DNA from: Podarcis gaigeae
Taxonomy: Eukaryota
DNA: 64,000 bases
Strand: one strand, 5' to 3'
Assembly (NCBI GenBank): GCA_964106915.2
Contig: OZ066927.1
In this document: positions 9,101-43,704 of the stretch, piece by piece
Layout of the letters: each line of letters begins with the position of its first letter
Position numbering within the stretch: the stretch's first letter is position 1
Notes under the pieces: generated by a model
Told to the model about the DNA's origin: nothing
What the model saw: the letters and a program-made list of their open reading frames with translations, nothing else
The model's database searches: none
Made by a program: the position numbers and the translations under genes

Positions 9101-12100
9101 TTATTCAGATGATGCATTTCCAGTCTGTGTTGGCTCTTGTACTCAACTTGTAAAGTCGTTAAATATGAGTTCAAGTTGGAATTTGCATGTAGCTTTGTGG
9201 ATAGACTTTGATGATTATTTAGTCATGTGCTAATATAGTATGTTAGATGATCACCAAATATTGAGAGATGTGCTATAAAGAGGGATGGCAGCAGAGTGAG
9301 TGAGTGAATGGCAGCCTAACTTAATCTCATAATAATAATAACAACAACAACAATCAACTTGGTTGTTGCTTGTTCTATATGCCAGTGTTGATTCTTGGTC
9401 TTTTGCTTCCAGGTTTGTGTCTAGTACAGCAGCTTTCGGCCCTTCCTTAATTGCTTTGCTTTCTTATTGGCAGGAATGTTGTTTCCTAGCTCTGTAAATA
9501 GGACCAAGATTAACATGGGGACTTGTGTAATGGCTGTTAATATCACTAAAGTAGGGGGAATGGTTCCCTACATGTGACCCATGACAAACTGTCAAAAACT
9601 GGTGCTTGCTTGAACTTTTGGATCTACAAAGTGTAGTGCTCACTTTGTAGAACAACTTTGTTCTTCTCTAATTTCTATGAGCCAGCATGGCTAGTAGCCA
9701 TAGATTATAGAAGTTGTAGTCAAGTAACCCCTAGAGGGCCACACAGTACCTCCACTCTTGGTTTATGGACAGCAAAGCCAGTAAAAGGAGTGGTATTAGG
9801 AGTATCAGTGAAGTAAGCATCGGCAGGGATGATAGGCATTGTAGTCCAACAGCTTCTGGAGGGCAACAGATTGGAAAAGCCTGTCCTAAGGGAAAGGGGA
9901 ATTTGCGGTCTGTCTTCCACACCAGGAGAAAGGTAATTCCTTTATTTCCCTTTGTGCTTTCTGATACAACTTCTACCTACACTAGCAGGAGAAGATGAAT
10001 TTTCAGTGGCGTGAAGTCAGGGTTCCACAAATGGACTTGCCAAATTGCTGTTGGCGACTGTGAATCTAATTAAAGCACACCCACAAACTCAAATCTCAGC
10101 AGATGATATCTCTTCCCCTGAATTTTTTTTGTACAAACGTAAATAATAAAACATGACATGACTAACAAAAAATGAATCACTAGGGAAGTAAAATACTAAA
10201 CATTATTTTATAGTACATAATCAGGTGATTTCAATAAACCAGTAAAATGAATTCTTCAATAAATCAAATTAGAAAACACAGAGTAATACGGGAAAGATAA
10301 TGAATAGTACCTGGTTATCTATGCTATATTGCAATGTATGTCTTATTTTAATTGTATATTTAATAAAATCACACCATACCTTGTAAAACTACTTGTTTCT
10401 CTGTCCCCTTGCCACCTACAATTTTTGCGACAGCTTTTCCATTGTTTCCCAGACTATACTATACCAGTGATCAATATTCATTAAATTCAAGGTTTTCCAA
10501 GTTCTGGCTATTACCGTTCTAGTTGCTTTTAATAAATGTGTTATTAATTCCTTCCTAATTTGTCCATATCTGGAATATGTAAATTAAGTAAGGCTAATGC
10601 TGGTGTTACTGGAATTGTCTGAGCTATAATCTGAGATAACCCTTTTAAAACTTTCTTCCAAAATTCTACTTTTTGTGGACATTCCCACCACATATGTTGG
10701 AATGTACCTATAATTTGGCATCCTCTGCAACACAACAGAGAGCTATTCAGCTGTGTATAAGATAGGCACCTCAGTGTTAAATAACACCCATTCAGTTTTT
10801 AGTGAATATTCCCTAGGATTTACTGACATATTTATATGGTGCTTTGGTCCATAAAAAAAAATTCTATTTATCTTCTTCAATGTTTATATCCCAATTTAAT
10901 TCCCACCAGCTTCTTATATTTTGTTGGGGCAAAATTGCTTCTCAATAAGTTTTTTATAAAAGGGAAAGTAATCCCTTAGTCCTCTTCCCCTGCATCATGG
11001 TGGCAGGGGGGCTTGTTTTGTGCCAAGCAGGAAATACAGACCTGCCCTTCCCTCAAATCTCCCAGCACTTGTACAGAGGATTTGAGGGAAGGGATCAGCT
11101 GTTCACTTTGGGTTGGTGTTTTCATACACTTGGAAGCATCAGAACTCTTTGTATTACAGTTTGAAGGTACTGAAAAGCAGTGAGAAACTGACACATTTTC
11201 TCTCCAGAGCTGCTTTTTTGTTGGGTGTCATGGAAAAAAAGGTCATTGGTCATCTGCAAGTAACAGCTGGCTAAGACCACCAGCTAAAACTTGTAGATTC
11301 CTGTATGAGACCTGCCTATAAAAAAGACTCCATATTTTTATGCACCTATATACACCTTTTATATCTAACCCCAAATCTGCCTTTTTTCCTGAGTTGTTTT
11401 TTTTTTTTTTAATTAAGCTTGAATGTTGCTGACTGCCAGTTGCCTATTTTGTTGCATGTTTTGTTGTTACCTATTTAATCATGTATTCCTGGGTGTCATC
11501 GGGGTTGGACCAGTTTTTAATAATGAATGAAACCATAGCAAGATTTGGATTACAAGACTTCCATCTACATATTGTATAATATTGAATTGTCTAGGAAGTG
11601 TAAGTATCTGTGTCAGTTTCACTTCTCAGCAGTGATGTAGGGCTGAAATATTTTCATTTCTAAAAATTCATTGCTTTGTAAAATTCATTAGTTGATGCCA
11701 GTGTAACAGACAAACATGCTTTCTGCATGGCAGTTTCAAAGTTGTAATTACCGTATTTTTCGCCCTATAGGACGCACTTTTTCCCCTCCAAAAATGAAGG
11801 GGAAATGTGTGTGCGTCCTATGGGGCGAATGCAGGCTTTCGCTGAAGCCTGGAGAGCAAGAGGCGTCGGTGCGCACCGACACCTCTCGCTCTCCAGGCTC
11901 CAGGAAGCTATCCGCAAGCTCCCCCCTTGCAGCGCGGAGCATGGGGCGCCCTCCGGAGGACGCCCCGTGCTTCGCGCAGGTGTCGGCAAGCCTTGCGCAC
12001 CGGGGGGAACTCCCCCCGGGCGCGCAAGGCTTGTGGGCGGCAGCCTGCAGCACAGGGCGCCCTTTGGAGGACCCCCCGGGCTTCGTGCAGGTGTCGGCAA

Positions 12101-15100
12101 GCCTTGCGCACCGGGGGGAACTCCCCCCGGGCGCGCAAGGCTTGCGGGCGGCAGCCTGCAGCGCGGAGCACGGGGCACCCTTTGGAGGACGCCTGGGCTT
12201 CGTGCAGGTGTCTGCAGCCTGCCGGCGGGCGGGGCACCCTGAAGCAGAGCGCCCCGCGCGCCGGACAGACATCCGCAGCGTGGGGAGCCCTGCAGGAGTT
12301 CCCTGCAGGGCTCCCCACGCTGCGGATAGCAGCCTGCTGCCCGGCGTGTAAGGCACCCTGAAGCAGAGCGCCCCTCGCACCGGGCAGACATCGGCCAGCC
12401 CCACAAGCTCGGGGGACAGCGGGGAGGCGCAGCGCCGCCACCCCACTGTTCCCCGACCTGGTTTTGGGGGGGAAATTCCTTTATTCGCCCCCCCCAAAAA
12501 AGTAGGTGCGTCCTATGGGACGAAAAATACGGTAAATGTTTTTCATGTGATTGTTCTTAGAAAATGGAAGAGACTACATTTTGTTTTATAAACAGGTAAA
12601 ATACAAATACAAACCAAACATGAATTCATCCGATTGGCTGTGCAGTTAAAATCAAAGCCAAACCTAAAATCCATATAAACTTGGGGCTGCAAGTGTGTTT
12701 ATATTTAGTTGAAGTCAAATATTCAAAATCAAATTATGCTCTGTTTAAAGCATCAATATTTTTCTAACTAAAAATTATCTGGAAAACCCGCATCACTGCT
12801 TCTCAAATAGTAATAAAGTATGATGTTTGTCTAACCCAGTGCATTTAGCCTATCTCAGCTGTTAACATCAGGTTCCAAGCAGCCTTAAAGTGCACAGCTT
12901 GACCAATACAGTGGTGCCCCGCAAGACGAATGCCTCGCTAAACGAAAAACCCGCAAGACGAAAGGGTTTTCCGATTTTTTAGCGGCTTCGCAAGACGAAT
13001 TTCCCTATGGGCTTGCTTCGCAAGACGAAAGCCCATAGGGAAATCTCCGGGGACAGCGGGGAAGCGCAGCGCGCCTTCTCCTCTGTTCCCGGACCTGTCC
13101 TAAGGCTTGCGGTGGGAGGTCCAGGAACAGAGGACAAGGCGCGAAGGGCTTCTGAATGTTGGCGGTGGGGAGGAAAGCCCTCCTCCCACCGCAAGCCTTC
13201 AGGACAGGTCCGGGAACAGAGGGGAAGGTGCGCAGCGCTTCTCCTCTGTTCCCGGACCTGTCTTGAAGACTTGCGGTGGGAGGAAGGTTTTCCTCCCCAC
13301 CGCCAACATTCAGAAGGCTGTTCTGAAGGCTGGCGGTGGGAAGAAAAGCCCTTCTCCCCCGCCAGCCTTCAGAAGAGTTCCCGCCTAGGCTGCGGATAGC
13401 AGTCTGCTGCCCCGCGCGAGCGGCGCTCTTAAGTAGAGCGCACCTCGCGCGGGGCAGCAGGCTGCTATCCGCAGCTTGGAGAGCCCTCTGGACCTCTTCT
13501 GAAGGCGGGCGGGGGGCAAAAGTCTTTGCTCCCCCCCCCCCCGTCTGCCTTCAAAAGCCGTCCGGGAGCATTTTAAAATCGCCCCGGGACAGCGGCTGAA
13601 TTCTCCGCTGTCCCGGGGCGATTTAAAAGCCCCCGGGAAGGCAGGCAGGGGGGACAAAGACTTTTGCCCCCCGCCGGCCTTCAGAAGAGGACCTCCGCTG
13701 TCCCGGGGGCTTTTAAAATGCTGGGGGACGGCAGCGAAGCCTTTGCTGCCGCCTGCCAGCATTTTAAGATCGCCCCGGGACAGCGGAGAAGTCTCCGCTG
13801 TCCCGGGAAGGCAGGCGGGGGGAAGCAAAGACTTCCCCCCTCCCCCGCCGGCCTTCAGAAGAGGTCGGGGGACAGACTGTCCCCGGACCTGGTCTGAAGG
13901 CGGTTTCCATAGGAACGCATTGATTGATTTTCAATGCATTCCTATGGGAAACCGTGCTTCGCAAGACGAAAAACTCGCAAGACGAAAAGACTTGCGGAAC
14001 GAATTAATTTCGTCTTGCGAGGCACCACTGTAACTGCTGGTAGAATTTGAAAAATATGAGGGGCCTGATCATCTAGGCCAGTGTTTCTCAAACTTGGGTT
14101 ACCAGCTGTTGTTGGACTACAACTCCCTAGCTGGCAGGACTAGTGGTCAGGGATGATGAGACTTCTAGTCCCAACAACAGTTAAAACCCAAGTTTGAGGA
14201 AAAACTGGTCTAGGTTAAGAATTACGGCATTTCCCCATTCTTTAGGACTTGCTGCTTAATTTGATTCTGCCTCCTAATTACTGGAAACCCTTTCCCCCCA
14301 CCCAACCATGCCTATTAGTCTTTCTCCTGTGTGGACTAGCTATTTTCACCTTGACCTACCATGGTGTTTGTAACTTGTCTTACGATGGCCAAGTGTGTAA
14401 ACTGTCACCAAAGCTCTGCAAACTGTAGCTTAGAAATATGATTGTGTGAGAGAGAGCTTAAGCTTTGGGTTGGCATTGGATCCCCGGGTGTTTCATATTG
14501 CAAAAAACCTAAATTATTTATTTTATTTTATTATTTAGTATTTTTTTTACTGTATGGACAGGATCCAGAGTTCCTGTGAGTCAAGTCAAGGGACTGGATG
14601 CTCGTGCTGTAGGAAGGGAGGAAAGCGATTTCTGCCATTTACTTCTTCCCCGCCCTGGGTCCCCTGAAAAGCTGCTCCAGAAGGAACGTTGGCAACTGTA
14701 TCAGAGGAACTGCAGGAGGGGGGAATCAGCTAATATATTTCTGCTTCCCCCCCCCCCTTTGGGGGGAGCCTCCATAGGCACTCATCCTCTTCTGCAAACA
14801 CAAGGCACATTCTAGTCCCAAGCCTATATCTTTTAGCATATAATGATCTGTGCAGTCTATTATCTCTTGCAGTCTAAGCCCAAGTTACACTATTGCTTTT
14901 TCTTTCTTTTTTTGTAAACAAGCCTGTGGAGTCATGGAAACAGACTATTTTGATTGAGCTTAGCAGTATGGCTTACCTGTGCTGGTTTAATCTAAACTGA
15001 GATAAACAGGCCGTAAGTCAAGGACTATGCATCTTGTGTGTTAAGCTATATGAATTTAAAACCAGCTTTATGATAAGTTGTTTTACATGGATTTTGTAGA

Positions 15101-18100: not shown

Positions 18101-21100
18101 GATTTAGGCCTAAATATACACCAGAAGTTCCATGATGTTATGCTAAGAGATGCCATGCTGGTGGAATCACACATAGTTGGCCTGGCCTGCAGTTGCTGGG
18201 GGCAGGCCCTTGGGGGCCATGTAGAGATTAATCGGTTCAGCCAGGCCGGTGAAAATGAGTTGCCTCAATGGCATGGTGTGTCCATGTCATTCGTGCCTTA
18301 CAAAGCTACTCAGTCTTGTTCTCTTGTGCTGTTACTCTAGATCTGCAGGAAAAGCATGCTCATGTACCATAATTCATTGCTTGGGCTTGATTCTCTTACA
18401 TAAATGCTGTCAGCCTGTTTTTCATTCTCTGGCCTCTCACAGTTCTGCTGTCTATAAAAGAATGGAACATCTTAGCAAAATTTTAGTAGGAGGAGCTCAG
18501 TGTGTGCGTTCCAATATCAATTCAGTATCTGTGTCTGCTAGAATCAAAGGCACACTTACTGAAATTACTTTATTTAATTATTTGATATATCACCGATTAG
18601 TACAGTGTTTGTTTACTTCCATTCACTTAGATAAATGATTGACGAGTGTGACAAATGTCTGGATTTATCTCCTGAAAAGCTGGTGCCTTTGTAGCATTTA
18701 CCTTGCAATCAGTTTGTTACTGTAGGGATAATTACAGTCTGTCCTGATGCTGTGTTGTGTATGGTGTACTTAACTATGCAAAGCCTGTTGCAGAATTACC
18801 ATATAAACTTAGTCTATATCAGCGTAACTGGCGTGATTGCGAGGCATCATGCTTTGAACAGCATAATACACAGATAGCCTCATTTGCTCGTTGATTGACA
18901 TGAGTGGTGCAAGTTGTTAGGGTACATCCTAGTGACCCAGAGTCCTAAAATGTGTTACACAAGTAGTTTGACATAATTGATTTCCAGAAAAATCTCAGAA
19001 TGAGATATTTTTACATATATCTGTAAAAACATGTTACATGCATTTTTGTAATAAGCTTAGCCCAAAGTTTTAAGAGTAGCACTGCACTCAGGAATATGGG
19101 CCTTCTTTTTCTGGCATGAATATACCTTTAGTTACAAGGTATTTCCCCCCCCCCCCCACCAATAATCTTGTTTCACAACAGTCTTTACCAATACATGCAA
19201 AGATTTTGGAGCGGGTTGTGGAGAATGTTTGAAAAGTTCTGTTTTTATTACCTCTAATTGTGGTTTCCTGTGTTTCTCTCTCAGATTGTTAACCCGCCTA
19301 AGGACCTGAAGAAGCCTCGTGGGAAGAAGTGCTTCTTTGTGAAGTTTTTTGGGACTGAAGATCAGTATGTACCCACTTCTTTTCTGCCAGGGGGATCTAT
19401 TTTTAAACTTTAGAGCCTTTGTAGAAAAGCTGGCACAGTAAAAATAGTCTTAATTTATCAGCTAGCAGCAGAAACCTCTAGAGCCTATGTGCTGGTCAAG
19501 GCTGAAGAAGTTGATGTACCAGCTTACCTAGGCATCAGAAATGTCCATAGCTTTTTTAAGACAGTTTAACACACATCCACATTCCCTGCATTAGGAAGAA
19601 TCTGACAGCATGTAGTTGGCATTGAGATTTATATCAAGGCTAGGGAACCTGTGGCCCTCCAGATGTTGGACTTCAGCTCCCATCAGCCCAGCTAGCATGG
19701 CCAGTGGTCAGGGATGATGGGCATTCTAGTCAAGCAATACCTGGAGGGCTGCAGGTTTGCTGTTTGGTTTGTTAATTTGAAAGTCAGACTCACATATTGA
19801 ATATTGTTACAGTTGATATTAGTGATATCCAGTGAAATAGGAAGAAACTGGTTGGTGTAAAAAAACTGAAAAGCAGTCTAGTTCATTCTCTCCCCGCCCC
19901 CATCAAAGGCAGGCATTTTTGACCATCTTCATTTGCAAAATTCAAACTTCTGGGTTCCATAAACAAGTGGAGCAGGAAGTAATGAGGTACCTCTGCGGCA
20001 TGTACAGAGAACCAAGGGAAGAGGTCAGGCATTTGCCTCATGGTGGATTTTGCAAACACTTTGGTCTGCACAGCCCATTGGGAACTGCGTGAACAATCCC
20101 AGGAGAACCTTCTATATTGTATCATAATCATCCATCCCTCTGTTTCTGCTTCAAGTCTTCCCGTGCTTGAGGAGCTGGAGCCCAAACTGCATCAACCACG
20201 TACAAGAGAGAGGTATTAGCAGATTCAAGATACAATAGAGGTTTGCGGGTGCTGAGTAATCTTCAGTGGAAAAAAACAACAAAGGGGTTTGGGAAATCCC
20301 CCATACATCCCCATAAGAATTCAGTGATACAAAATGTTGAAAGAGGAAAAATAAAAACCTGATAACCATGTGGAAGGAACAGATAGGTAGCCGTGTTGGT
20401 CTGCCATAGTCAAAACAAAAAAAATTATGTGGAAGGAAAAATTTAATGTGGAAGGAAAAATTTAATGAGTGAACAAAAAGTACTCCGTGTTGCTACATTT
20501 TGTTGTAGGTTGCACTTATACAAAGTATTTCTACTGAGATATATTCTCATTCTGTAAGCACCCACACATGATAATTTCATTTAAAAACTGGGCCATTGTG
20601 TCAGTATTCAACACATTATGCTTTAGACAACAGCATAAATTCCTCCTTTATACTTGCTTTTTCTTTTTCTGAAGCTTAAATATTTGGACTAACAGTGCCA
20701 CACAAGAGAGTGCTTATTTTCTAGTCAGGTATATGTCCTCTAATAATTGGGGCATACCTGTCAGTGCTTCAAGGCTGTTGCTATTCCTCACCCTTAGGTA
20801 GTTCCATTTTTTGTAAATTCTTTAAACCTTACATTTTTATATTGTTGTAACCTGCTATGGGAGCTTACGGTGAAGAGCAGGTAGGAAATAATACAACATC
20901 ATGAGATGGGAACAAAAAAGGAGAAGGGAGAAACTGCAGTATGCTTTTATTTGCTGTGGAAACTTTTGAAAAGTGGGTTGAATGGTCTGGAATTCTGTTT
21001 AGCATAGATTAATGAACAAATTGCAAATGAAAACGTTGATGTACCAAACCAAATAGCAGTATGGCATGTAGTTTATAATATAATTCGGTGAAGGAGGTTG

Positions 21101-33100: not shown

Positions 33101-36100
33101 AACTTCTTGACACATCCTGTATTAGGTACATAGATAAAAACAAGACTCTTGCTAGTCTGTGGCAGACATCAAGGAGTCTCCTCAGAATTGAGAAAGTGAC
33201 GACCCATTAAAATGTGTGTGGAGGCTTTTCAGACTTGAAGTTTGGTTGCCTTGGTTTCTAAGTTTGCCTCTTTGCAATTGCAGCCTGTGAAAGATGGCGA
33301 CCCTCATTTCCATCACTTCCTGCTTAGCCAGACAGAGAAGGTGAGCAATAGGTTTGGCTGATGAGTTCATTGCTTGTGGCACTTAAGGAGTTGAAGTCTC
33401 TGTGCCAGGTTTCATTAGTTTTGCTTTGGCATTCATAAGTGAAAATGCCTTTAAAGCTGAGCCGTGTCATCCTCAGATTTCCTTGAGGAACAGCAGTTTT
33501 TTACTTGTACATATGGGACAGGTATGATTCCTGGAGCAGGTCACCAGAAGTTGCGCATAAGGCAGCTATAGGGAGATAACAGTCATTTATTTCACCCCAC
33601 ATGCATTTCATAAAGATTCTTCCATCCTAAGGGAGCATGGTTGGGGAGTAGGAAATAGGATGTTGCCTTATACTGAGCCAGATCATTGATCCATCTAGCT
33701 CAGTATCACCCTAAGCCTAGACTCTCCACTGACTGGCAGCTGCTCTCCAATGCTGGTGATTGAAACTGGGTCCTTCTGTATGCAAAGCAAGTGCTCTACC
33801 CACTGACCTGCAGCTGTTCTCCTGCAATAATTATTTACTTGGGTTTTGTTTGTTTTTTTGCCAGATCTCTCTAAGCTTGGTTCTTCACCTATGAGTTCAC
33901 AGTGTTATCTGGGATTGCCCTGGAGGGAAGGTGTTGAGCATAAGAACTGTTTTTCTCATACAGAAAGTAGGGTGGGGTGTCTCTGGCTTGATCATAATTA
34001 TTGTCTATTCATGCTGAGTATATAGGTCTACTTGCCCTGCAAGACAGCAAAAGAGTTTCCCCCAAAATTTGTTATTTTCCTTTTCCTCTCTATGCAGCCA
34101 GCTGTTTGCTACCAAGCCATCACAAAGAAGCTGAAGGTGTGTGAAGAGGTATAGCAGACTTCCTTTTTTACTTGCCTGCATTAAAGTTTTGAGACTGCCT
34201 GTTTCTGTAAAGTAAAATTATCTTTTATGGCTGTGTTTTTTCTACCCCTTAGGAAACAGGGTCCACGTCTATCCAGGCAGCCGACAGCACGGCTATCAAT
34301 GGCAGCATCACTCCCACAGACAAGAAGTAAGAACCTCCTTTTCTTTCATTTCCCTCTGATTCTGAAGGCTGCCGTGTCTGCCTGTTGGCTTAAGGAGCAC
34401 TTTGCAATATAACACATATGATACATATATGTAAACAGTTATAACAATTGCACATATAAAACATTTTAAAAAACCATAGTTATATGTGTAACAGCAGTTG
34501 AAAATAAGATCACATATGGAAAACTAATTCAGATTCAAAGCAGATATCAGTTGGGATAAATATTTTAGGATGCTTGTTAAAAGAGGAATGGCTGAGTGAG
34601 TTTGTGTTTTTATAAAAGTATTTCTGTGTTACCATATTATAAAATATAAGGGTGATGTACAACAAAACATAAAACACCATTAAAAACAATACAGAGAATC
34701 ACTAAAGTAACTGGCTAGTCTAAACATTAGAAATTTAAATAGCTGCAAAGGCCTTCCAGGATTAAAAAAAAAAGGGCTCCAAGAGATGCAAGAAAGTCAA
34801 AAGCAATGAGTTTCTTGAAGAAGAGCATGATCAAACTATGAGAAACAAAATTAGTAAGACTTCCTGGATATCGTAATGAGCCTGCCTGCTGATCCGATGA
34901 ATGCATTTTGAAAAATGAAAGTTGCTTTTATCACAACTCTAGGGTCGTTGCATGAATGTGCTGGGAGTTGCCCAGTCAATATGTGGGTGATAGCATTGTC
35001 CTGCAAGGCACGTCAGGTGGCCTAATCTGTTTAACCACCAACCCCAAACCACCAGACACATGGGCAGAGGCGGAAGCATTGTACCTTTCAAGAACTGCAC
35101 TCTGTGACACTTGTGTCCTCTGGCACTTCCTGTGCTTCCCCCTCTCTAGAGTGACAGGAGCTACAGTTGCACTTCCTGCCTCGCTCTCGGAAGCAATTTC
35201 CCTCCTGCTCCGATGCAGAACAGGCTGTGGCCTGTTTGTCGCTGGAGCTGTCTCGGAATGTCCGTTTTTCAGGCTTGCTGAAGGGAAACTTAATATATAA
35301 CAATGAAAGTATTCAGGTAAACCCTTTCCCCTTAGCAATTCGGAAGCAGACAATGCGTCCCTCTGGGTTGGGCTCTGTTAGTGTGAAAATGTCTTAGCAG
35401 TGGCTTGCCGCAAGCCTCTCAGGGTGGTTTAGTTAAGCATTGCAAGTGCTGCCAGCTGTGAACTGAACAGCAGACATACAGGAAGCTAAAATGTGTTAGC
35501 TTTATTAAGATCAGTTTTGAAACGACTTTGTTAATTGAGGAGGGAAACAGTCACTTGTACTCTTTGTAAGTTTCCAAGGGTAATTTGTCTTTGTTCCATT
35601 CTGGTATCCCTTGTTCTTGCCACTGCCTCTTTATAGTTTACTTAAAGTGCATGCAGGGTCCTCTCAACCAAAATTCTTCCAATACCCCCCTCCCCTCCTT
35701 ACTAATTTGGATAAGGAATGTTGCATGTTAGCAGTGGCTTTTCCTAAGCATGAAACCAGAGTGGCTGCTAACATGTGAACTGTAGCTTAAACAAGCACTT
35801 AATTCTCTTTAAGTGGCATGGCAGAAAGATTTACAAAAACATAAGTGACTTTTGATCTATGAGTTGTGCACCAGGATACCAAATGCTGTGTTGAGCCTTC
35901 TGAGGCAAACTAGCTAAGAGAGGGAGTTGCCCAGTCATTGCTGAACTGTACTCAAATTTAGACCTTGCACATGCAGACCCAAGACATTTTTCACTGCACC
36001 GTCCTAGTCTGTTTTGTGCTATCAATATGACTTTGTGCACCCAGTTCTTTGCCCTTCTAGGATGAGGTTCTCTTATCTTCCTGAGCAGAAAGTAATGTCT

Positions 36101-39100
36101 CTTAAGTCCAGACTGCTTGTTTAGGCATGCTGTATAGAGCAGATTTTTGATGTCTGTCAGCCATTGGCTCTTTGCTAGGGATATAAATGTGATCCTTTTG
36201 GTGTTCCTGCTCCTGAGAACATTGGTGCTCACTCAATAAATCCTCTGTTACTATGAATTACGCACTTTGCTGCCTCTGTATATCTGTTTCCATGAAGCTT
36301 GAACCCCACAAAGCCTCAAAGAGCCTCTGCGTCTATATCTCCAACCTCACATTAAGCCCTTATGCAAATTTCCAACGCTACAAACTTCCTTCTCTCCTCC
36401 CCAGGATAGGGTTCCTTGGCCTTGGCCTGATGGGGAGTGGCATCGTGTCCAACTTACTAAAAATGGGTCACACTGTCACGGTCTGGAACCGGACTGCTGA
36501 AAAGGTGAGTTCATTCTTTGGGAAGTATGAGGCGATATCATACATGGTCTTAGTCACCTAGTCTAAGCTTCTTCATCTGCAGAGAGACTTCATTATGAAG
36601 CTGTGGCGACTTTCAGCTTGGCTGACCTTAAGCCATCATCCCAAATGTGAACAGTGGGGTTTCACTGAGCTTGGAAGTATAGTAATGAGGAGAAGCCATT
36701 TAGACAAAAAGTATGCCTTTCTGTCAGTCACGTCTGAGACATGCATTTCTGAGCTCCACCACTGCTGTGACAAAGTCAGCTTAAATTATCACACCAGAAC
36801 ATAGTAGCCATGGTAACATTTTCCTTCCCTCTGCTTCATGTTCTCTCCTCTCATTTTGTGCTATTTTTGTGGCTAGTAGCAGAAGCTCTGCCTTCTGATC
36901 TCTGGAACAGCTGTGTCCACATCATTCTTGTATCAAGTTTTTGGAGATGGATTTCTTTATTTGAAGCATTGGTTTACCCTGCCCTTCAGCCAAAAAGGCT
37001 CCTGGAATAGCTTGTATATGAGATCAGTGGTATACAAACCAGTCCCTTCAGGCTTGCAACCTAACAGATACAACACAAGAGGGAAGAGGAAGAGAAGCTG
37101 ACTCAGGCATCAGTTCGTAGTGAACACATAATAGCTTTTGAATGGGAAGATTTGAATGAGAGGAGGCCAGTGGCAGCCTGTCTCAGCAGAGTCAATGGAG
37201 TGGACCCTGAAGCCCCTCTGTCCCTCTGCTACAGCCAGCTGGAATGGCTAGTCTATAGATTGCTTGAGCACAGTGGAGTGAGAGACAGTGTGCATGTCTA
37301 ATTCTTAAAAACAGTGATCAAACTCACAATGGTGAACCCCCCCCCCTTATTCTGGGGTAAAAGCAATCAAGAGACTTGGTTTTGGAGCTACCATCTAGCG
37401 GCCTGTGGCAGCAGGGGAATGGCCCAAATGTTCAGTGCTCACACAGAGATGATAAAAGCTAATGCCAGGACCCATACCCAGCTACTGCCACCAGTAGAAA
37501 GTAGCAGGTTGTCTTCTGTCATTCAGGACAGGTGAGGTTTTCTATTCCCCACCAGCCCGCATGGGCTTTGTTTTGGAACTGGGCTCTAGCTGTTGCTACC
37601 TGTTTGGCTATTAGAAGGTAGCCTGCTATCATTGGCCTCTTGAGCTGTGCGCCTGATAAGTTGCTATGGAAGCCCTGGGGTCTTTGGAATGCTCCTTGAA
37701 ATGCGCTGCCTAAAGTAAGAGGATAGCTAACCACTCTAGAAAGCAGAGAAGAGAACCTGACATCACTGAACATGATCTCCACACCCCAGAAAACAAGGTT
37801 CTTCTAAATAGCCTAGCCCTGTTTCATTTTGTTCATGTGAATGTGGTCCAGGATGCAATCCTCTTCAGTTCACCATGGGCACATCAGGGTCCCTGGTAGA
37901 GCAAAGCCAGCTTTGACCTTTATTATTCAATGGTTTCCATTTCTTACATTTGGGTCTGTGACTTTTGCAGTGTGATTTGTTCATCCAGGAGGGGGCAAGG
38001 TTGGGAAGAACCCCCGCTGAAGTGGTCTCCACCTGTGACATCACTTTCGCCTGCGTATCTGATCCAAAGGCAGCCAAGGATGTAAGGATTGTCTCTTTTT
38101 CTTGCACGCTCTCACCTTTCTCTCAGTGCTGTACACAGCGCTGACTTTCCATGACCAAAAACTCTTCCAAAACATACTGACTCCTGATGAATGAATCCCT
38201 CCATTGATTGCAGTCATGAATCTCTGCAGCTCTTTAATTCTAAGCCAGGAAAGTGCAGAAATCATATTCCTCATTGTAATGGATGCCCCAAAGTTTGTCT
38301 GGTACAGTAATTCCCAAACTGCATCAGGGCATGCTAAGTGTACTGCAAGAGAGGCTGAAGTGTGCCTTGAAAAAATTAGTAAACTGGAGGCGTCGTCCAT
38401 TCTGTGTTCCTTATAGCAGTGAGGGCCCGTGCAACATTGATTAACCTTCCTCACTTTTTACTTAGCATATATATAAGGACATGCTAGAATTAGACTATTT
38501 GAATTGTATCAGAATATTCAATTGGAATAAGTGTGTGCTAGGATTCCCTTATGCAATTGCTGATGGAGGCAAGAAAAGGCCAGAAGCATCACTGTTGTCT
38601 TGCCTTGACTGGGAAGGGGGAAACAGGAGGTAGTGGTAGTTTCAAGGAGGAAGCCTGGCTGCTGTTCTGAGAACAGAAATTGTGAGAATTAAGAGTGAAG
38701 TGTGCCTCCCAGTTTTAAATCATGGATGGAAACTGATCAGAGTATCAAAACATGGCTCTAGTATGTAGAACAAGGTTACCCTGTCTTTTCAGCTGTATGT
38801 TGATATTTTCTGCCCAAATGCTTAATCTCCTTCTAAAGGCTTTTCTGTCAAATGACTGGAATAGTTCACAGTAGGTTTGGGCAGAGCTGGTTACTTTTGC
38901 TTTTTGTTTTCTTCATTTTGTGTGGTTGCTGGTGTAGTGTATGTTTATAATTTTCATGATCCTCTTTGAAGGCTGTAGTCTAAAGGCAATATATAAAACA
39001 AATAAAGGACTGTGTGTGCTCTGGGATAGGATAACCACAGTCAGCCACAGAAGCAAATTGTATCACTTCACAGTTTAAAATGTTTTAGATAACTTTATTG

Positions 39101-42100
39101 TGACTTTTCCATAACCGCAGCCAACCCTGTGAGAGGTTGCTATTGTTCCCATTTTACAGCTGAGGAACAGAGGCTGAGAGTGACTTGGATGAGACCATCA
39201 AGAGGTGGAGCTTGAACCTCGGTCTCAAAGGCTGAGGTCATGGAGTTTGATTAGTGTGTGCTTTCCCAGTAGCACACTCCTAAAACCCGAGACTACTAAT
39301 AGAGGGCGGAATAAAGAGGACTGTGCTTGTGCTACACGTTTTGTAGCTCTTATGTGGTTGTAAGAGTAGCCTTGAAAAACTGTTATCTCAGAAAAGCAGC
39401 AGAGAATCCCCAGGCACAGTTAAGTATATTTTTCTATTTATTAAGTGATTTTGCTCCAGGGTCCTACCTAAGCTCATGTTATCCATACAACTCAACCAAT
39501 GCACAATACAAGTAAAATACACAAAAATAATTGTGTGGCTGAGTGTATATGAAGTAGAGTAACACAAAATGTATGATCTACTCCTCCTAATAGGACCTAA
39601 GAAGCTACCATTGTGCCAGGTCAGACCAAGTCCATCTAGCCCCGGAGTTAGGCAACTCTTCATCTGCTACCTTTTTAAAAAAGGATTTTCCCTCCCCATA
39701 TCATTTAAAATGGCCTGTTGTCATAACCAGCACCCAATCCAGAGCCCTACAATGTCAACACATCAATCAAATCTTACCCCTGCTGTTTTATATATATGTA
39801 ACTGCAAGGCTGTGAAGTTAATAGAATGGGAGGTTTCATCCTTGAGTAAGAAGTTGGGCTGCATGAATTTTGGATTCCTTTTGAGTTAATGTTTTATACA
39901 GGTGCTGCAGTATAGCACTGCAGATTTGTGCGCATGCTCGGCTGACCCTGTGAGAAACTAGTCGTATTTCTGTGTGGTCCAGTTCCTCCCCTCTGCCTGG
40001 AACTGCAAATAGTAACACATCCTAATAGAGCTTCAACCAGACATCCCTTATCCAAGATAGAGAGAAAATGTAGCCCAAGGCAGTAATGCCATCATCTTCC
40101 TGATCCTTTGTTAGAGCTTCCTTAAAACTATCCTCTGTCTAAAGTGAATAGCAGCATCCTACAAGGTAAATAATGTTGAGGCCACTCAAGTCATGGGGGC
40201 ACTTTCAGCAAGCCCTTGTGCAGAGATGGTTAGCAGGAGGCCCTTTAGCATTGGCATAGGTGGGTTTCTTTTGCAGACATCCTATTGCTTTGGCGCTCTT
40301 CTATTCCCACAGCTGGTGCTTGGTCCTAGTGGAGTGCTCCAGGGTATACGTCCAGGAAAGTGCTACGTGGACATGTCCACCGTGGATGCAGACACTGTTA
40401 CAGAACTGGCTCAGGTAAGCATTGCAAACTGAGTGCCTGGTAATAGGGTTAGCTCTACTTCAGGATGGTGTTCATTCACTCTTTTTCCGCTACATGCAAA
40501 TTCTGCCTTAAAAGAGCCAGGCAATTTGCAAGCTTACTAAAAATTGAGACCTGTAACCAGGGATTCGGATTTTTGATTCAAATGATTTTTGGAAGTCTGC
40601 CTCACCTCCCTGTACCCTGTTCTTCAATCTAAAGAAATGGTAGCCAGTGTGGTGCCCTCCAGATACTGTTGGAGTCCACAAACAACTGGAGGGCACCAAG
40701 TTGGCTGCCCCTAAATTGATGTGACCTTTCAGTTCCCTCAAAAGTAGCTGCGCTGTCAATAGTCTCCTGCTGACACACTCAACATTAGCCAATATATGGG
40801 GTGTTTTCAACATCAGTGTCACCACAGCAGGTTAACCCAATGGCTAGAAGGAGTTCATGGGTGCTCCTGTCATTAATAGGTGCTTGGGGTTTCCTGTATT
40901 TCCTGATGGTTTTCAAGGCATAGTTTTCCTCTTTGACCTCTTGGTTGGTTCCATATGTGTGTGCCCCATTTAATTGGGACATTTCTTCTCGTTTCTTCCA
41001 GGTGATCGTATCCAGGGGTGGTCGCTTCCTGGAGGCACCAGTTTCAGGGAACCAACAACTCTCTAATGATGGCATGCTGGTGATACTAGCCGCCGGTGAC
41101 AGGGGCTTATATGAAGACTGCAGTAGTTGTTTCCAAGCAATGGGGAAAACCTCTTTTTTTCTAGGTAATATCTTCCATCCCAGAGCTGAAGAGAATCATA
41201 GTAGGCTGATTATAGGCAGAATATAGTTTAAGCCCACTGGATTCAGTTGGCTTTAGTGGGCCTCGATTTGTATAGTAAGGATGGGCATTCTGTGGTCCTC
41301 CACACTGTTGTTCAACTAAAATTCCCAGCAGCTCCAGGCCAGCTGATGGCCAGTAATCAGGAGTTGATCTGGAGGGCACTGTGTTGCCCACCCTTGCTAT
41401 CAGTATCTCCATTCTGAGAGGTGGAATAGGAAGGTGAGTCTCCCCTCAGCATGTTTAGGCAAGAGAACATAAAACTGTGTGGTCAAAAAAATAGTTTTGG
41501 AATCCAGAGTCTGTCTGAAGCAGTGATACAGGCAACCCCTGATTTGCAGAAGGGTTGTGTAAGGAGTCACATGCACAACTGCGGAGCACACATAAGCCCA
41601 CTATGCTCCCACCCCCTGTTATGCCCCCTTTTCTAGCCGCTTCCAGGCTGCTGTCATGCACGCATTCATATTAGGGATTCAGTCCACCCACCCGAAACAG
41701 AAGATGTGGTTGCTTTCACTCGGTGTCTTTCAGAACGGCTTAGATCTCAGTGGGCATGGTGCAGGTTCTTGGTTTTTTCCTTATATAGAGCTGTCAAACA
41801 GTGTGTGCCTCTCTCACAGGGGAAGTGGGCAACGCTGCCAAGATGATGCTCATTGTGAACATGGTCCAAGGAAGCTTCATGGCCACAATAGCAGAAGGAC
41901 TAACTCTGGCTCAAGTGACTGGTCAGTCGCAGCAGACTCTTCTGGATATCCTCAACCAGGGACAGCTCGCCAGCATCTTCTTGGACCAGAAGTGCCAAAG
42001 TAAAGTTCTCTCCCATCTTTTCTTCTTAACCAGAAAGCTGGTTTAAGTGTCACCAAACAGTTGCATAGTGGGGTTCAAAGAGTGGGGGAAAGGATATAAG

Positions 42101-43704
42101 CATTGCTTCTGGGATTCACTATTCCATTAGTGTAGTGTAGGATGGATTTGCTGCAGATTCATACTCCCACATCCAAGCCAAAGATTTTATCCACTGAACA
42201 TTGCAAGCTTGTTGCTACTTCATCTGTCTTCACAGCCAGGCTTTTAAAAATATGGGGTGATACAGGAGGTCCGTGGTTGGGGGAGGGTCACAGTTTAGCA
42301 GTGTTACTGAAAGGAGGGTTAGGAAAGATATCTGCCTTGAAGATCCCTTTTAGAGTAGCAATCTGACTCTACTTGATGTCTTTAAGCAGGATCAGTTTGA
42401 TCCTGGCACTGGTGAAATCTGCAAGGGAAGAGAGAAAGCAAGTCAGCAGCTGGGAAAGTGGAATGTGAAATGTACCTGGGGTTTTGTTTCTTTTCTTTTT
42501 TTCCAGACATCCTGCAAGGAAATTTTAAACCAGATTTCTACCTGAAATACATCCAGAAGGATCTCAGATTAGCCATTGCACTAGGCGATTCTGTTAACCA
42601 CCCAACTCCCATGGCAGCTGCAGCCAATGAGGTATGTGTGCTGCCCAGGTCTCCTCTCTTGCTCCAGTTCCATCTTCAGGAGAGCTCCTGATACCCCTTT
42701 TTGTAAAGGTCAGGGGAGTTGCCACTTTGGTCCTGCATGGCCAAGCCTCTTTGGGTGCCTTGGCCACGCGGCCCCCAGTCTTCCAACTTTGGAGGTATGG
42801 CTCACTGGCAAAGGACTCCCACCCTCCTTCTTAGCTTCAAAGTTTGGAAATAGGCTGGACCACCCACCATGCTCGCCAGGGGGACGCATCACACTTGCTT
42901 AGATAAGTGATGGCTGGGAAAAAGAGGTGGATGGGAAACGGCCATTTTTTTTCACCTATTTTTAATGGGCATGCTTCACATCTGCATGCTTCACATCAAC
43001 CCTGGTCGTTTCTCTTGATAATTCCATACACACACCTTTTTTCAAAAGGCAGCAGGCACTTATAGGGAGGTGATCTTGATGGTGCCCCTTGATTATGACA
43101 CTCTTTCCTTGATTTGCCAAATCCTCTGGGGTTCAGCCATTTTTTTCAAAGCATTGTAAAACATTTTTGTTTGCATTGGCTTCTCATGGTTAAAATTAAA
43201 CCTGTAGAACATTCGTTGTTCAACTCCCATCATCCCTGGCCATGCTTGGCAAGCCTGAAGTCTAACAACATCTGGAAGGCCACAGGTTGCCCATCCTGGT
43301 TTAGAGTTTGGTGATTTAATACTGCTTATGGCTGTTGAAAGTTTATATTTTAATGGAATATTTTGGCTCTTTTACATGACACACTATCGTCTTTCCTGTG
43401 GGGGGAAGCTTTGTTGGGGCTAATTATGGCCAGCAGGCTTTTCCTCATAGTGAGCTACACATAGGTGCTGGCTGTGGCCCCAATTCCCCAACTCACATAG
43501 CGTTCCTTGAAGGGAAGTGTTTATAGATATTGCTGAGGCAGTTCTGTATTCTAGTGGGAAACCAATAGTATTATGAGAATACTTGCTTTCTGAAAGGACT
43601 GCTCTCTTATTGCCTTTCTCTTTCTTCAGGTCTACAAACGAGCAAAAGCATTGGACCAATCTGACAATGACATGTCTGCTGTGTACAGGGCCTACATCCA
43701 CTAG
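6051..43704 (+). CDS. GLYR1: GLYR1/NPAC/NP60 complete spliced CDS, 551 aa: join(6051-6106,17642-17678,19285-19364,25435-25573,26072-26290,29662-29748,33284-33340,34098-34148,34253-34326,36405-36504,37971-38081,40313-40414,41002-41164,41820-41999,42507-42631,43630-43704)
   Basis: 16 exons, all GT-AG, with consistent phases, total 1656 nt. PWWP ([15 protein letters not shown]), AT-hook [20 protein letters not shown], Rossmann [10 protein letters not shown]-terminus VYRAYIH*. Confidence 0.97.
10123..10977 (-). mobile_element. L1/Tx1-clade LINE 3' fragment
   Basis: [19 protein letters not shown]...FWKKV is the ORF2 C-terminal zinc-knuckle; T-run at 10123-10130 is a possible poly(A) tail. Confidence 0.85.
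11751..12532. mobile_element. Non-autonomous Tc1/mariner element (Tc2-like CCGTA termini), 782 bp, GC-rich palindromic interior
   Basis: TIRs CCGTATTTTTCGCCCTATAGGACGCAC and GTGCGTCCTATGGGACGAAAAATACGG (25/27), TA TSD on both sides. Confidence 0.9.
12909..14030. mobile_element. Non-autonomous pogo/Tigger-like element, 1122 bp, GC-rich tandem and palindromic interior
   Basis: TIRs CAGTGGTGCCCCGCAAGACGAA and TTCGTCTTGCGAGGCACCACTG (21/22), TA TSD, repeated subterminal CGCAAGACGAA. Confidence 0.9.
14079..14207. mobile_element. hAT MITE (same family as 60067-60199)
   Basis: CAGTGTTTCTCAAACTTGGG...CCCAAGTTTGAGGAAAAACTG, near-TSD atctaggc/gtctaggt. Confidence 0.8.
15990..16204. mobile_element. 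Tigger-like MITE, 215 bp
   Basis: TA|CAGTGGTACCTCGGGTTA...TAACCTGAGGTACCACTG|TA. Confidence 0.88.
17642..17678 (+). CDS. GLYR1: GLYR1 exon 2 ([16 protein letters not shown] motif)
   Basis: tttttctatag acceptor, AAG|GTGAGT donor, 37 nt. Confidence 0.95.
19285..19364 (+). CDS. GLYR1: GLYR1 exon 3 ([27 protein letters not shown])
   Basis: ctctctcag / gtatgt, 80 nt. Confidence 0.95.
20380..20426. mobile_element. 47-bp Penelope-like fragment
   Basis: ggtagccgtgttggtctgccatagtcaaaacaaaa overlaps the start of the 49512 copy (agtcgaaacaaaa). Confidence 0.6.
21805..21932 (-). mobile_element. L2-type LINE 3' end
   Basis: (AAT)n tail followed by ataccctgcccatttggctggg...ccactctggg. Confidence 0.6.
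21950..22150 (-). mobile_element. MIR/CORE-SINE relic (others near 7320-7440 and 39065-39235)
   Basis: ccctgtaaggtag...attatcccc...gactgag CORE-like sequence. Confidence 0.55.
22950..23192. mobile_element. GC-rich DNA-transposon relic (left boundary uncertain)
   Basis: GC/CpG-rich block in an AT-rich intron, ends AAGCACTG, 13-bp tandem duplication tcctggtataagc. Confidence 0.45.
23875..24345 (+). mobile_element. L2 LINE 3' fragment
   Basis: ttcagggcacaattcaaagtgctggttttgacctataaa encodes [13 protein letters not shown], an L2 ORF2 C-terminal motif; AT-rich tail. Confidence 0.75.
25435..25573 (+). CDS. GLYR1: GLYR1 exon 4 ([12 protein letters not shown]...KGKGKDQ)
   Basis: ttttattag / gtgagt, 139 nt. 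Confidence 0.95.
26072..26290 (+). CDS. GLYR1: GLYR1 exon 5 (low-complexity linker plus AT-hook RKRGRPPK)
   Basis: ctctcag / gtttgt, 219 nt in frame. Confidence 0.92.
27335..27578. mobile_element. Tigger-like MITE, 244 bp
   Basis: TA|CAGTGGAAACTCGAGTTGC...GCAACCTGAGGTATGACTG|TA, CpG-rich interior. Confidence 0.8.
29662..29748 (+). CDS. GLYR1: GLYR1 exon 6 ([29 protein letters not shown])
   Basis: cttcacag / gtgatt, 87 nt; alternative donor 9 nt upstream. Confidence 0.88.
30102..30491. mobile_element. Palindromic MITE (PIF/Harbinger-like)
   Basis: GGGCT...AGCCC termini, repeated AAACCAYRGTTT motifs. Confidence 0.5.
31965..32320 (-). mobile_element. L2 LINE 3' fragment
   Basis: [13 protein letters not shown] motif (L2 ORF2 end) and L2-type 3' tail. 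Confidence 0.75.
33284..33340 (+). CDS. GLYR1: GLYR1 exon 7 ([22 protein letters not shown]2/KDM1B-activating peptide)
   Basis: ttgcag / gtgagc, 57 nt. Confidence 0.95.
33650..33822 (-). mobile_element. Squam3-like tRNA-derived SINE
   Basis: Reverse complement reads gtgggtagagcacttgctttgcatacagaagg...actgagctagatgga...cagtataaggca. Confidence 0.7.
34098..34148 (+). CDS. GLYR1: GLYR1 exon 8 ([17 protein letters not shown])
   Basis: tatgcag / gtatag, 51 nt. Confidence 0.93.
34253..34326 (+). CDS. GLYR1: GLYR1 exon 9 ([25 protein letters not shown])
   Basis: ccccttag / gtaaga, 74 nt; 104-nt intron upstream. Confidence 0.94.
36405..36504 (+). CDS. GLYR1: GLYR1 exon 10 ([36 protein letters not shown](P)-binding loop)
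   Basis: ctccccag / gtgagt, 100 nt, phase 2 start. Confidence 0.96.
37971..38081 (+). CDS. GLYR1: GLYR1 exon 11 ([37 protein letters not shown])
   Basis: ttttgcag / gtaagg, 111 nt. Confidence 0.93.
40313..40414 (+). CDS. GLYR1: GLYR1 exon 12 ([34 protein letters not shown])
   Basis: cccacag / gtaagc, 102 nt. Confidence 0.95.
41002..41164 (+). CDS. GLYR1: GLYR1 exon 13 ([16 protein letters not shown]...KTSFFL-G)
   Basis: ttcttccag / gtaata, 163 nt. Confidence 0.96.
41820..41999 (+). CDS. GLYR1: GLYR1 exon 14 ([21 protein letters not shown]...DQKCQ-N)
   Basis: ctctcacag / gtaaag, 180 nt. Confidence 0.96.
42507..42631 (+). CDS. GLYR1: GLYR1 exon 15 ([23 protein letters not shown]...AAANE)
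   Basis: ttttccag / gtatgt, 125 nt. Confidence 0.96.
43630..43704 (+). CDS. GLYR1: GLYR1 exon 16, coding part ([24 protein letters not shown])
   Basis: tttcttcag acceptor, TAG stop at 43702-43704. Confidence 0.96.

Follow-up and report, generated by a model that had tools for sequence, protein, structure and literature searches.

The GLYR1/NPAC tetramer reads H3K36me3 nucleosomes, aids RNA polymerase II in passing through chromatin and activates LSD2, and to our knowledge little has been described about the tuning of its dose or valency. N-terminally truncated isoforms made from internal promoters are established, as RNA and as protein, for the DeltaN members of the p53 family; the short GLYR1 form considered below would resemble them in keeping the oligomerisation domain and dropping the effector N-terminus, but it is a prediction. 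Stand-alone beta-hydroxyacid dehydrogenases, such as plant glyoxylate reductase (e.g. PDB 3DOJ), are alike in their ~290 aa and N-terminal GxGxxG strand, whereas they carry a catalytic Lys where GLYR1 has Met. In GLYR1 (NPAC, NDF), the 16-exon host gene of our candidate, the dehydrogenase domain (residues 261–553) is the tetramer module, the PWWP domain, the AT-hook and the LSD2-binding linker (residues 214–225) lie upstream of it, and Met occupies the position of the catalytic Lys (human M437) (PMC13144531, in part). In the literature and databases searched, neither a dehydrogenase-only isoform nor a first exon in intron 9 turned up for this gene, and among papers available without subscription none was found on a GLYR1 internal promoter, an intron-9 first exon or a dehydrogenase-only isoform.

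In human, hybrid first-internal exons occur commonly, and their starts often lie close to the 3′ splice site (PMC11797052, in part). The intron-9 candidate resembles those described (PMC11797052; PMC8769537, both in part) in having a 3′ splice site, nearby promoter-like elements and a single shared donor; it differs in that its internal form is predicted to be non-productive and its first-exon form to be read in a different frame, only 2 nt separating the stop from the start. One supplement file of PMC8769537, looked up by Ensembl identifier, has no GLYR1 row. Poison exons and splicing coupled to nonsense-mediated decay (NMD) (PMC7347940, in part) share with the candidate a conserved intronic place, a frameshifting length and a premature stop, but the duck form of the candidate keeps the frame. 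Three NMD events are listed for human GLYR1 in the same source, and a Tra2-dependent alternative exon of the gene is reported in PMC4175592.

Within the window, the 64,000-nt stretch of Podarcis gaigeae DNA analysed here, a block of GLYR1 intron 9 (35150..35316, plus strand) is tentatively read as a rarely used hybrid first/internal exon, which would be poison if spliced in and would give a dehydrogenase-only protein if started at the adjacent ETS cluster. We hold this reading to be quite possible, if somewhat short of probable. A conserved hidden exon would be a testable control point of GLYR1, whether as a poison switch, as a built-in competitor subunit or as the two combined, and, if the reading is true, it would explain why the start of the pseudo-enzyme domain coincides with an exon border to which a second start gives access. 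Should the block be an enhancer only, it would still be a newly noted conserved element.

A candidate alternative exon in GLYR1 intron 9

The window carries a complete 16-exon GLYR1 (NPAC) gene on the plus strand (6051 to 43704). Its exon chain translates into 551 aa with zero internal stops, and exon 5 is 100% identical to the RefSeq proteins of Podarcis muralis and P. raffonei. Exon 9 (34253..34326), placed by tblastn of squamate proteins and by junction reads, ends in phase 2 and is followed by the intron that hosts the candidate exon (intron 9, 34327–36404). Exon 10 (36405..36504) starts the Rossmann fold (IGFLGLG), and its peptide is identical to that of human N-PAC (PDB 2UYY) across 33 aa. 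The remainder of the pseudo-dehydrogenase domain is encoded by exons 11–13 (37971–38081, 40313–40414, 41002–41164) and 14–16 (41820–41999, 42507–42631, 43630–43704), all on the plus strand within 37971..43704 and identified by tblastn, exon-chain translation and comparison with stored proteins.

A first-pass annotation of this DNA had proposed that intron 9 contains an internal promoter and first exon, and the coding elements it named are all present: an ATG at 35303..35305 (plus strand) with A at −3, an in-frame TAA at 35291, and a donor after 35316 (CAG/GTAAAC, 35314..35322, plus strand) whose phase 2 fits that of exon 10 at 36405. Spliced through this donor, the ATG would read on into exon 10 in frame, giving an open CDS of 870 nt and 289 aa that begins with MKVFR. 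The donor had been called strong; it is of middling strength, scoring 7.5 bits with a frequency matrix under which 7 of the gene's 15 true donors outscore it. Across 34,368 nt of GLYR1 intron, 31 GT sites (the candidate counted) score at least as high, 7 of which have an in-phase ATG and 3 a purine at −3 as well (candidate again counted). Because 3 of 31 comparable donors share it, the ATG-plus-donor pattern taken alone is weak and within chance; when conservation is counted in, the observation exceeds chance. Further upstream, the frame of 35303 contains three more ATGs (35060, 35213 and 35258), which open 15, 22 and 7 codons, respectively, each run being closed by a stop before 35303.

The element does have the donor and ATG of the proposed first exon, but acceptors and a stop codon had been overlooked, and because of these it may be an internal (poison) exon instead. 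Scored with a matrix built from GLYR1's own 15 acceptors (true sites 5.8–18.2 bits, leave-one-out), an acceptor-like polypyrimidine tract plus AG at 35130..35149 (plus strand) reaches 7.6 bits, ranking 4th of 136 intron-9 AG sites, and a second acceptor-like site, TTTTTCAG at 35260..35272 (plus strand), reaches 8.0 bits and ranks 2nd of 136. The former would delimit a candidate alternative exon of 167 nt (35150..35316, 3n+2) and the latter, from 35273, one of 44 nt; a third acceptor-like site at 35219 (6.5 bits) would give a 98-nt cassette in the same frame as the other two. In both the 167-nt and the 44-nt cassette the exon-9 frame is closed by a TAA at 35298..35300 (plus strand), 2 nt upstream of the ATG at 35303, and inclusion after exon 9 would append 49 or 8 residues, respectively, before the stop. 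Acceptor and donor here flank a frameshifting, stop-containing exon, as in a poison cassette. The A at −3 of the ATG cannot tell start from stop, since the same base ends the TAA at 35298. In the RNA contigs of a relative, the acceptor tract carries six extra pyrimidines at ~35140, and the AG, TAA and ATG show no listed change.

Five ETS-type MGGAAG cores (35071, 35124–32, 35170–78, 35188 and 35341; span 35071..35346, given without strand) form a cluster that is a candidate weak promoter or enhancer. The ETS motif CACTTCCTG, named in the first-pass annotation, indeed occurs at 35124 and 35170, two of the window's three copies, and CGGAAG sites lie at 35071, 35188 and 35341. With five cores within 300 nt, it has no denser counterpart anywhere in the window, the probabilities being P = 0.0002 against local dinucleotide shuffles as opposed to P = 0.056 for random placement of the window's 87 sites. 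The local CpG enrichment reported earlier exists in a mild form (6 CpG in 223 nt, o/e 0.43, top 4.3% among 487 intronic windows), but it is not an island. The upstream region is repeat-free as claimed: 35050–35400 matches its own genome once, namely itself, and intron 9 is without tandem repeats. A structured intronic RNA (snoRNA or miRNA) was considered and rejected, given 0 Rfam matches in intron 9 at E up to 1 and ordinary folding (z = −1.63; 14 of 200 shuffles fold equally well).

In the predicted short protein, MKVFR would stand in place of everything before human Ile270, with the rest of the domain intact and the PWWP domain, AT-hook and LSD2-binding linker gone. The suggested likeness to plant glyoxylate reductase holds for size and fold but fails for catalysis: Met replaces the catalytic Lys (human M437 position), the KMMLIV motif being kept in the lizard, and therefore no reductase activity is expected. 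In the ESM Atlas the features score 0.96 to NAD_binding_2 plus NAD_binding_11 clusters, which indicates a generic dehydrogenase only. Judged by its residues, the short protein would act as a scaffold of the pseudo-enzyme kind and not as a reductase.

Conservation, transcripts and protein records

Among 372 stored proteins bearing the vertebrate exon-10 peptide, MKLFR stands directly ahead of that peptide in three: P0299 and P0387, both UniRef models from duck, and P0309, a model from green turtle. These homologues are known only as predicted gene-model peptides, and the conservation is at the protein level. The intron-derived peptides of duck (54 aa) and turtle (24 aa) were back-translated into degenerate profiles and scanned along both strands, and each profile ranks 1st of 128,000 positions, at 35314. 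Within intron 9, residue shuffles of these peptides reached the score in 0 of 500 cases for duck and 1 of 500 for turtle; without the MKLF part the counts were 0 of 500 and 209 of 500, the latter non-significant. The duck alignment (35151–35314) comprises 92 informative matches versus 27 mismatches and includes the ETS site at 35170, which is aligned with the duck residues E-L-P. In both alignments, the best-matching stretch is the ATG-to-donor end and not the ETS sites, and between duck and turtle all 4 residues of MKLF agree, against 6 of the 11 that precede it.

The duck alignment begins one base past the lizard AG at 35148–49, which places the duck model's acceptor at the homologous position; the acceptor-like site at 35130..35149 is homologous to the point where the duck model's exon begins, and the TTTTTCAG site lines up with Gln codons of the duck and turtle models. 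The duck model exon is 165 nt long and in frame, so that via this acceptor it is not a poison exon. Counted from CAG to donor, the cassette would be 44 nt long in the lizard as against 41 nt in the other two species; both lengths are 3n+2, and the 41-nt form would shift the frame in duck and turtle. The turtle model omits the true exon 9 and cannot be relied on as a transcript. Conservation of the ATG, the A at −3, the phase and the donor, which the first-pass annotation had set as a test of its proposal, is implied by the duck and turtle models: Met is present in both, the codon preceding it begins with A in the lizard, duck and turtle lineages, and both models join the point homologous to the candidate donor to exon 10. 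Lizards, birds and turtles diverged roughly 280 million years ago, and because it is conserved over this span, the 35150–35316 block is probably under selection. A metagenome scan with a monitor-lizard isoform gave two loci, neither match spanning an amniote exon 9–10 region.

No run recorded as RNA contained 34950–35450, a result that speaks neither for nor against use of the element. Four of 24 listed runs were mapped (X21, X22, X1 and X2), all from a relative ~2% diverged. X21 and X22 are bulk raw-read libraries of unspecified tissue, ~12% of each being read. The exon 9–10 junction (34326–36405) is covered by 19 reads in X21 and 31 in X22, depth in both libraries is 0 across 34361 to 36160, and neither contains inclusion reads for the candidate exon. 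The predicted junction from 35316 to 36405 did not appear, with 0 reads on the element against 50 exon 9–10 reads in these two bulk libraries; use of the candidate donor in them is below ~6% (95% upper bound). In run X1, from a close relative, contig X1-1 (35012..35317, plus strand, depth 3.5) begins 138 nt upstream of the 35150 acceptor and stops one base beyond the candidate donor, on the G common to the intron and the start of exon 10. This end hints at a fork of spliced and unspliced reads, and the chance of its falling at the donor is 1–2% by a rough, post hoc estimate. The depth of X1-1 resembles that of the other intron contigs of X1 (2.7–5.3); X1 has no junction contig, and its exon contigs are also missing, probably filtered. 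A contig of run X2 (35125–35363) continues through the donor, and both X1 and X2 had been picked for containing the stretch.

The short isoform foreseen by the annotation was not encountered in the protein collections examined. No amniote protein beginning at exon 10 occurs among 98 matches of 143–455 aa, exon 10 lies within the first 50 residues in 0 of the 372 stored proteins, and the best 150 of 26,938 matches in a search of representatives include no vertebrate protein of ~289 aa. The exact 289-aa part of the turtle model that starts with MKLFR is absent among 15 billion proteins; its 284-aa domain, by contrast, matches that of the window residue for residue and forms the C-terminal part of 96 stored proteins. 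A hagfish protein (P0205, 307 aa) was rejected as a short form, its N-terminus being unrelated. The Podarcis muralis RefSeq isoforms compared (numbering runs up to X18) measure 478–566 aa. Clusters may conceal short members, as in one that unites a 260-aa and a 509-aa protein, and of one cluster with 234 members, 15 were covered. The UniRef turtle entry has n = 4 (Archelosauria), and hence three exact sub-sequences exist in related species.

Weighing the readings of the intron-9 block

Under the preferred reading as a hybrid exon, the block would act by two routes. Splicing of exon 9 to the candidate exon would run into the TAA at 35298, with decay of the message as the likely outcome; by the NMD rule, an mRNA is decayed when its stop lies well ahead of the final junction, and the spliced-in form would be decayed on that account. 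Alternatively, the ETS cluster as a weak promoter would make the block a first exon, and the ATG at 35303 would be translated into a 289-residue dehydrogenase-only GLYR1. Use of either splice site in the lizard is presumed from sequence. The short chain, in which the tetramer domain is retained, would join full-length subunits and lower nucleosome-binding valency; it is plausible that mixed tetramers would carry fewer chromatin arms. The poison route and the short-protein route would both reduce GLYR1 activity. A more far-reaching proposal, which we regard as doubtful, is that intron 9 has contained a two-way switch exon ever since lizards, birds and turtles shared an ancestor. An ETS-driven dehydrogenase-only subunit would then dilute the tetramer's nucleosome-binding arms in specific cell types, and splicing of the candidate exon into the full-length message would destroy that message, stop and start being 2 nt apart. 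Internal use appears in a duck gene model only, and first-exon use is hinted at by one contig only.

The alternative that survives best, unlikely in our judgement although deserving serious consideration, is a conserved ETS-based intronic enhancer, along with which the donor and ATG were carried and then picked up by gene predictors, there being no exon of consequence. The ETS cluster is present and the conserved block takes in one of its sites, but the alignments match best at the ATG-to-donor end rather than at the ETS sites. ATG-plus-donor sites also arise by chance, and the omission of the true exon 9 marks the turtle model as an unreliable prediction, yet the same donor is used by two independent models and the start of the duck exon coincides with the lizard acceptor. 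Similarly, bulk RNA without reads on the element and the lack of an annotated short isoform are as expected of an enhancer, whereas one RNA contig terminates at the donor.

That the block is a poison cassette only, with the TAA at 35298 ahead of several later junctions causing NMD and the ATG unused, we think improbable. Its two acceptors are as strong as those of true exons, and the CAG-to-donor cassettes of 44 nt (lizard) and 41 nt (duck and turtle) are all 3n+2; the duck I-I and turtle V-K codons, read back from the peptides, would permit a homologous stop, but in duck the 165-nt exon preserves the frame. Such a cassette would be expected to be missing from steady-state RNA and protein databases, while the ETS cluster, the conserved in-phase Met and the contig reaching 138 nt upstream of the acceptor are left unexplained. 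The three NMD events listed for human GLYR1 are in keeping with regulation of this kind, although by hg38 coordinates none of the three appears to lie in intron 9.

A neutral intron with motifs arising by chance would fit the same ATG pattern at 3 of 31 comparable donors and the lack of expression in bulk libraries, but it is very hard to credit, as duck aligns over ~165 nt at the same intron position with 0 of 500 shuffles reaching the score.

Other variable features of GLYR1

Several further features were observed along the gene. Intron 1 contains a CpG island (12001–14000, GC 55–62%, o/e 0.74–0.82) ~6 kb from the main promoter island, which is possibly a second promoter. In intron 3, at about 20157–20213, lies a 57-nt in-frame cassette that adds 19 aa within the PWWP domain; it is found in several Podarcis RefSeq isoforms and, slightly altered, in Rhineura. 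An alternative donor of exon 8 at 34136 removes four codons, has five X22 reads and is used in several RefSeq isoforms. Elsewhere in intron 9, positions 35707–35772 are similar to an in-frame 23-aa intron-9 cassette of gecko GLYR1 models (12 of 22 residues; tblastn E 0.059, the top match in the window) and have no AG where the gecko cassette has its acceptor; the comparison suggests an exon gained in geckos or lost in lacertids. Lastly, many bird and turtle GLYR1 models (among P0294–P0324) are 750–850 aa long and also bear PF10259, a composition that suggests read-through into, or fusion with, the downstream gene, ROGDI.
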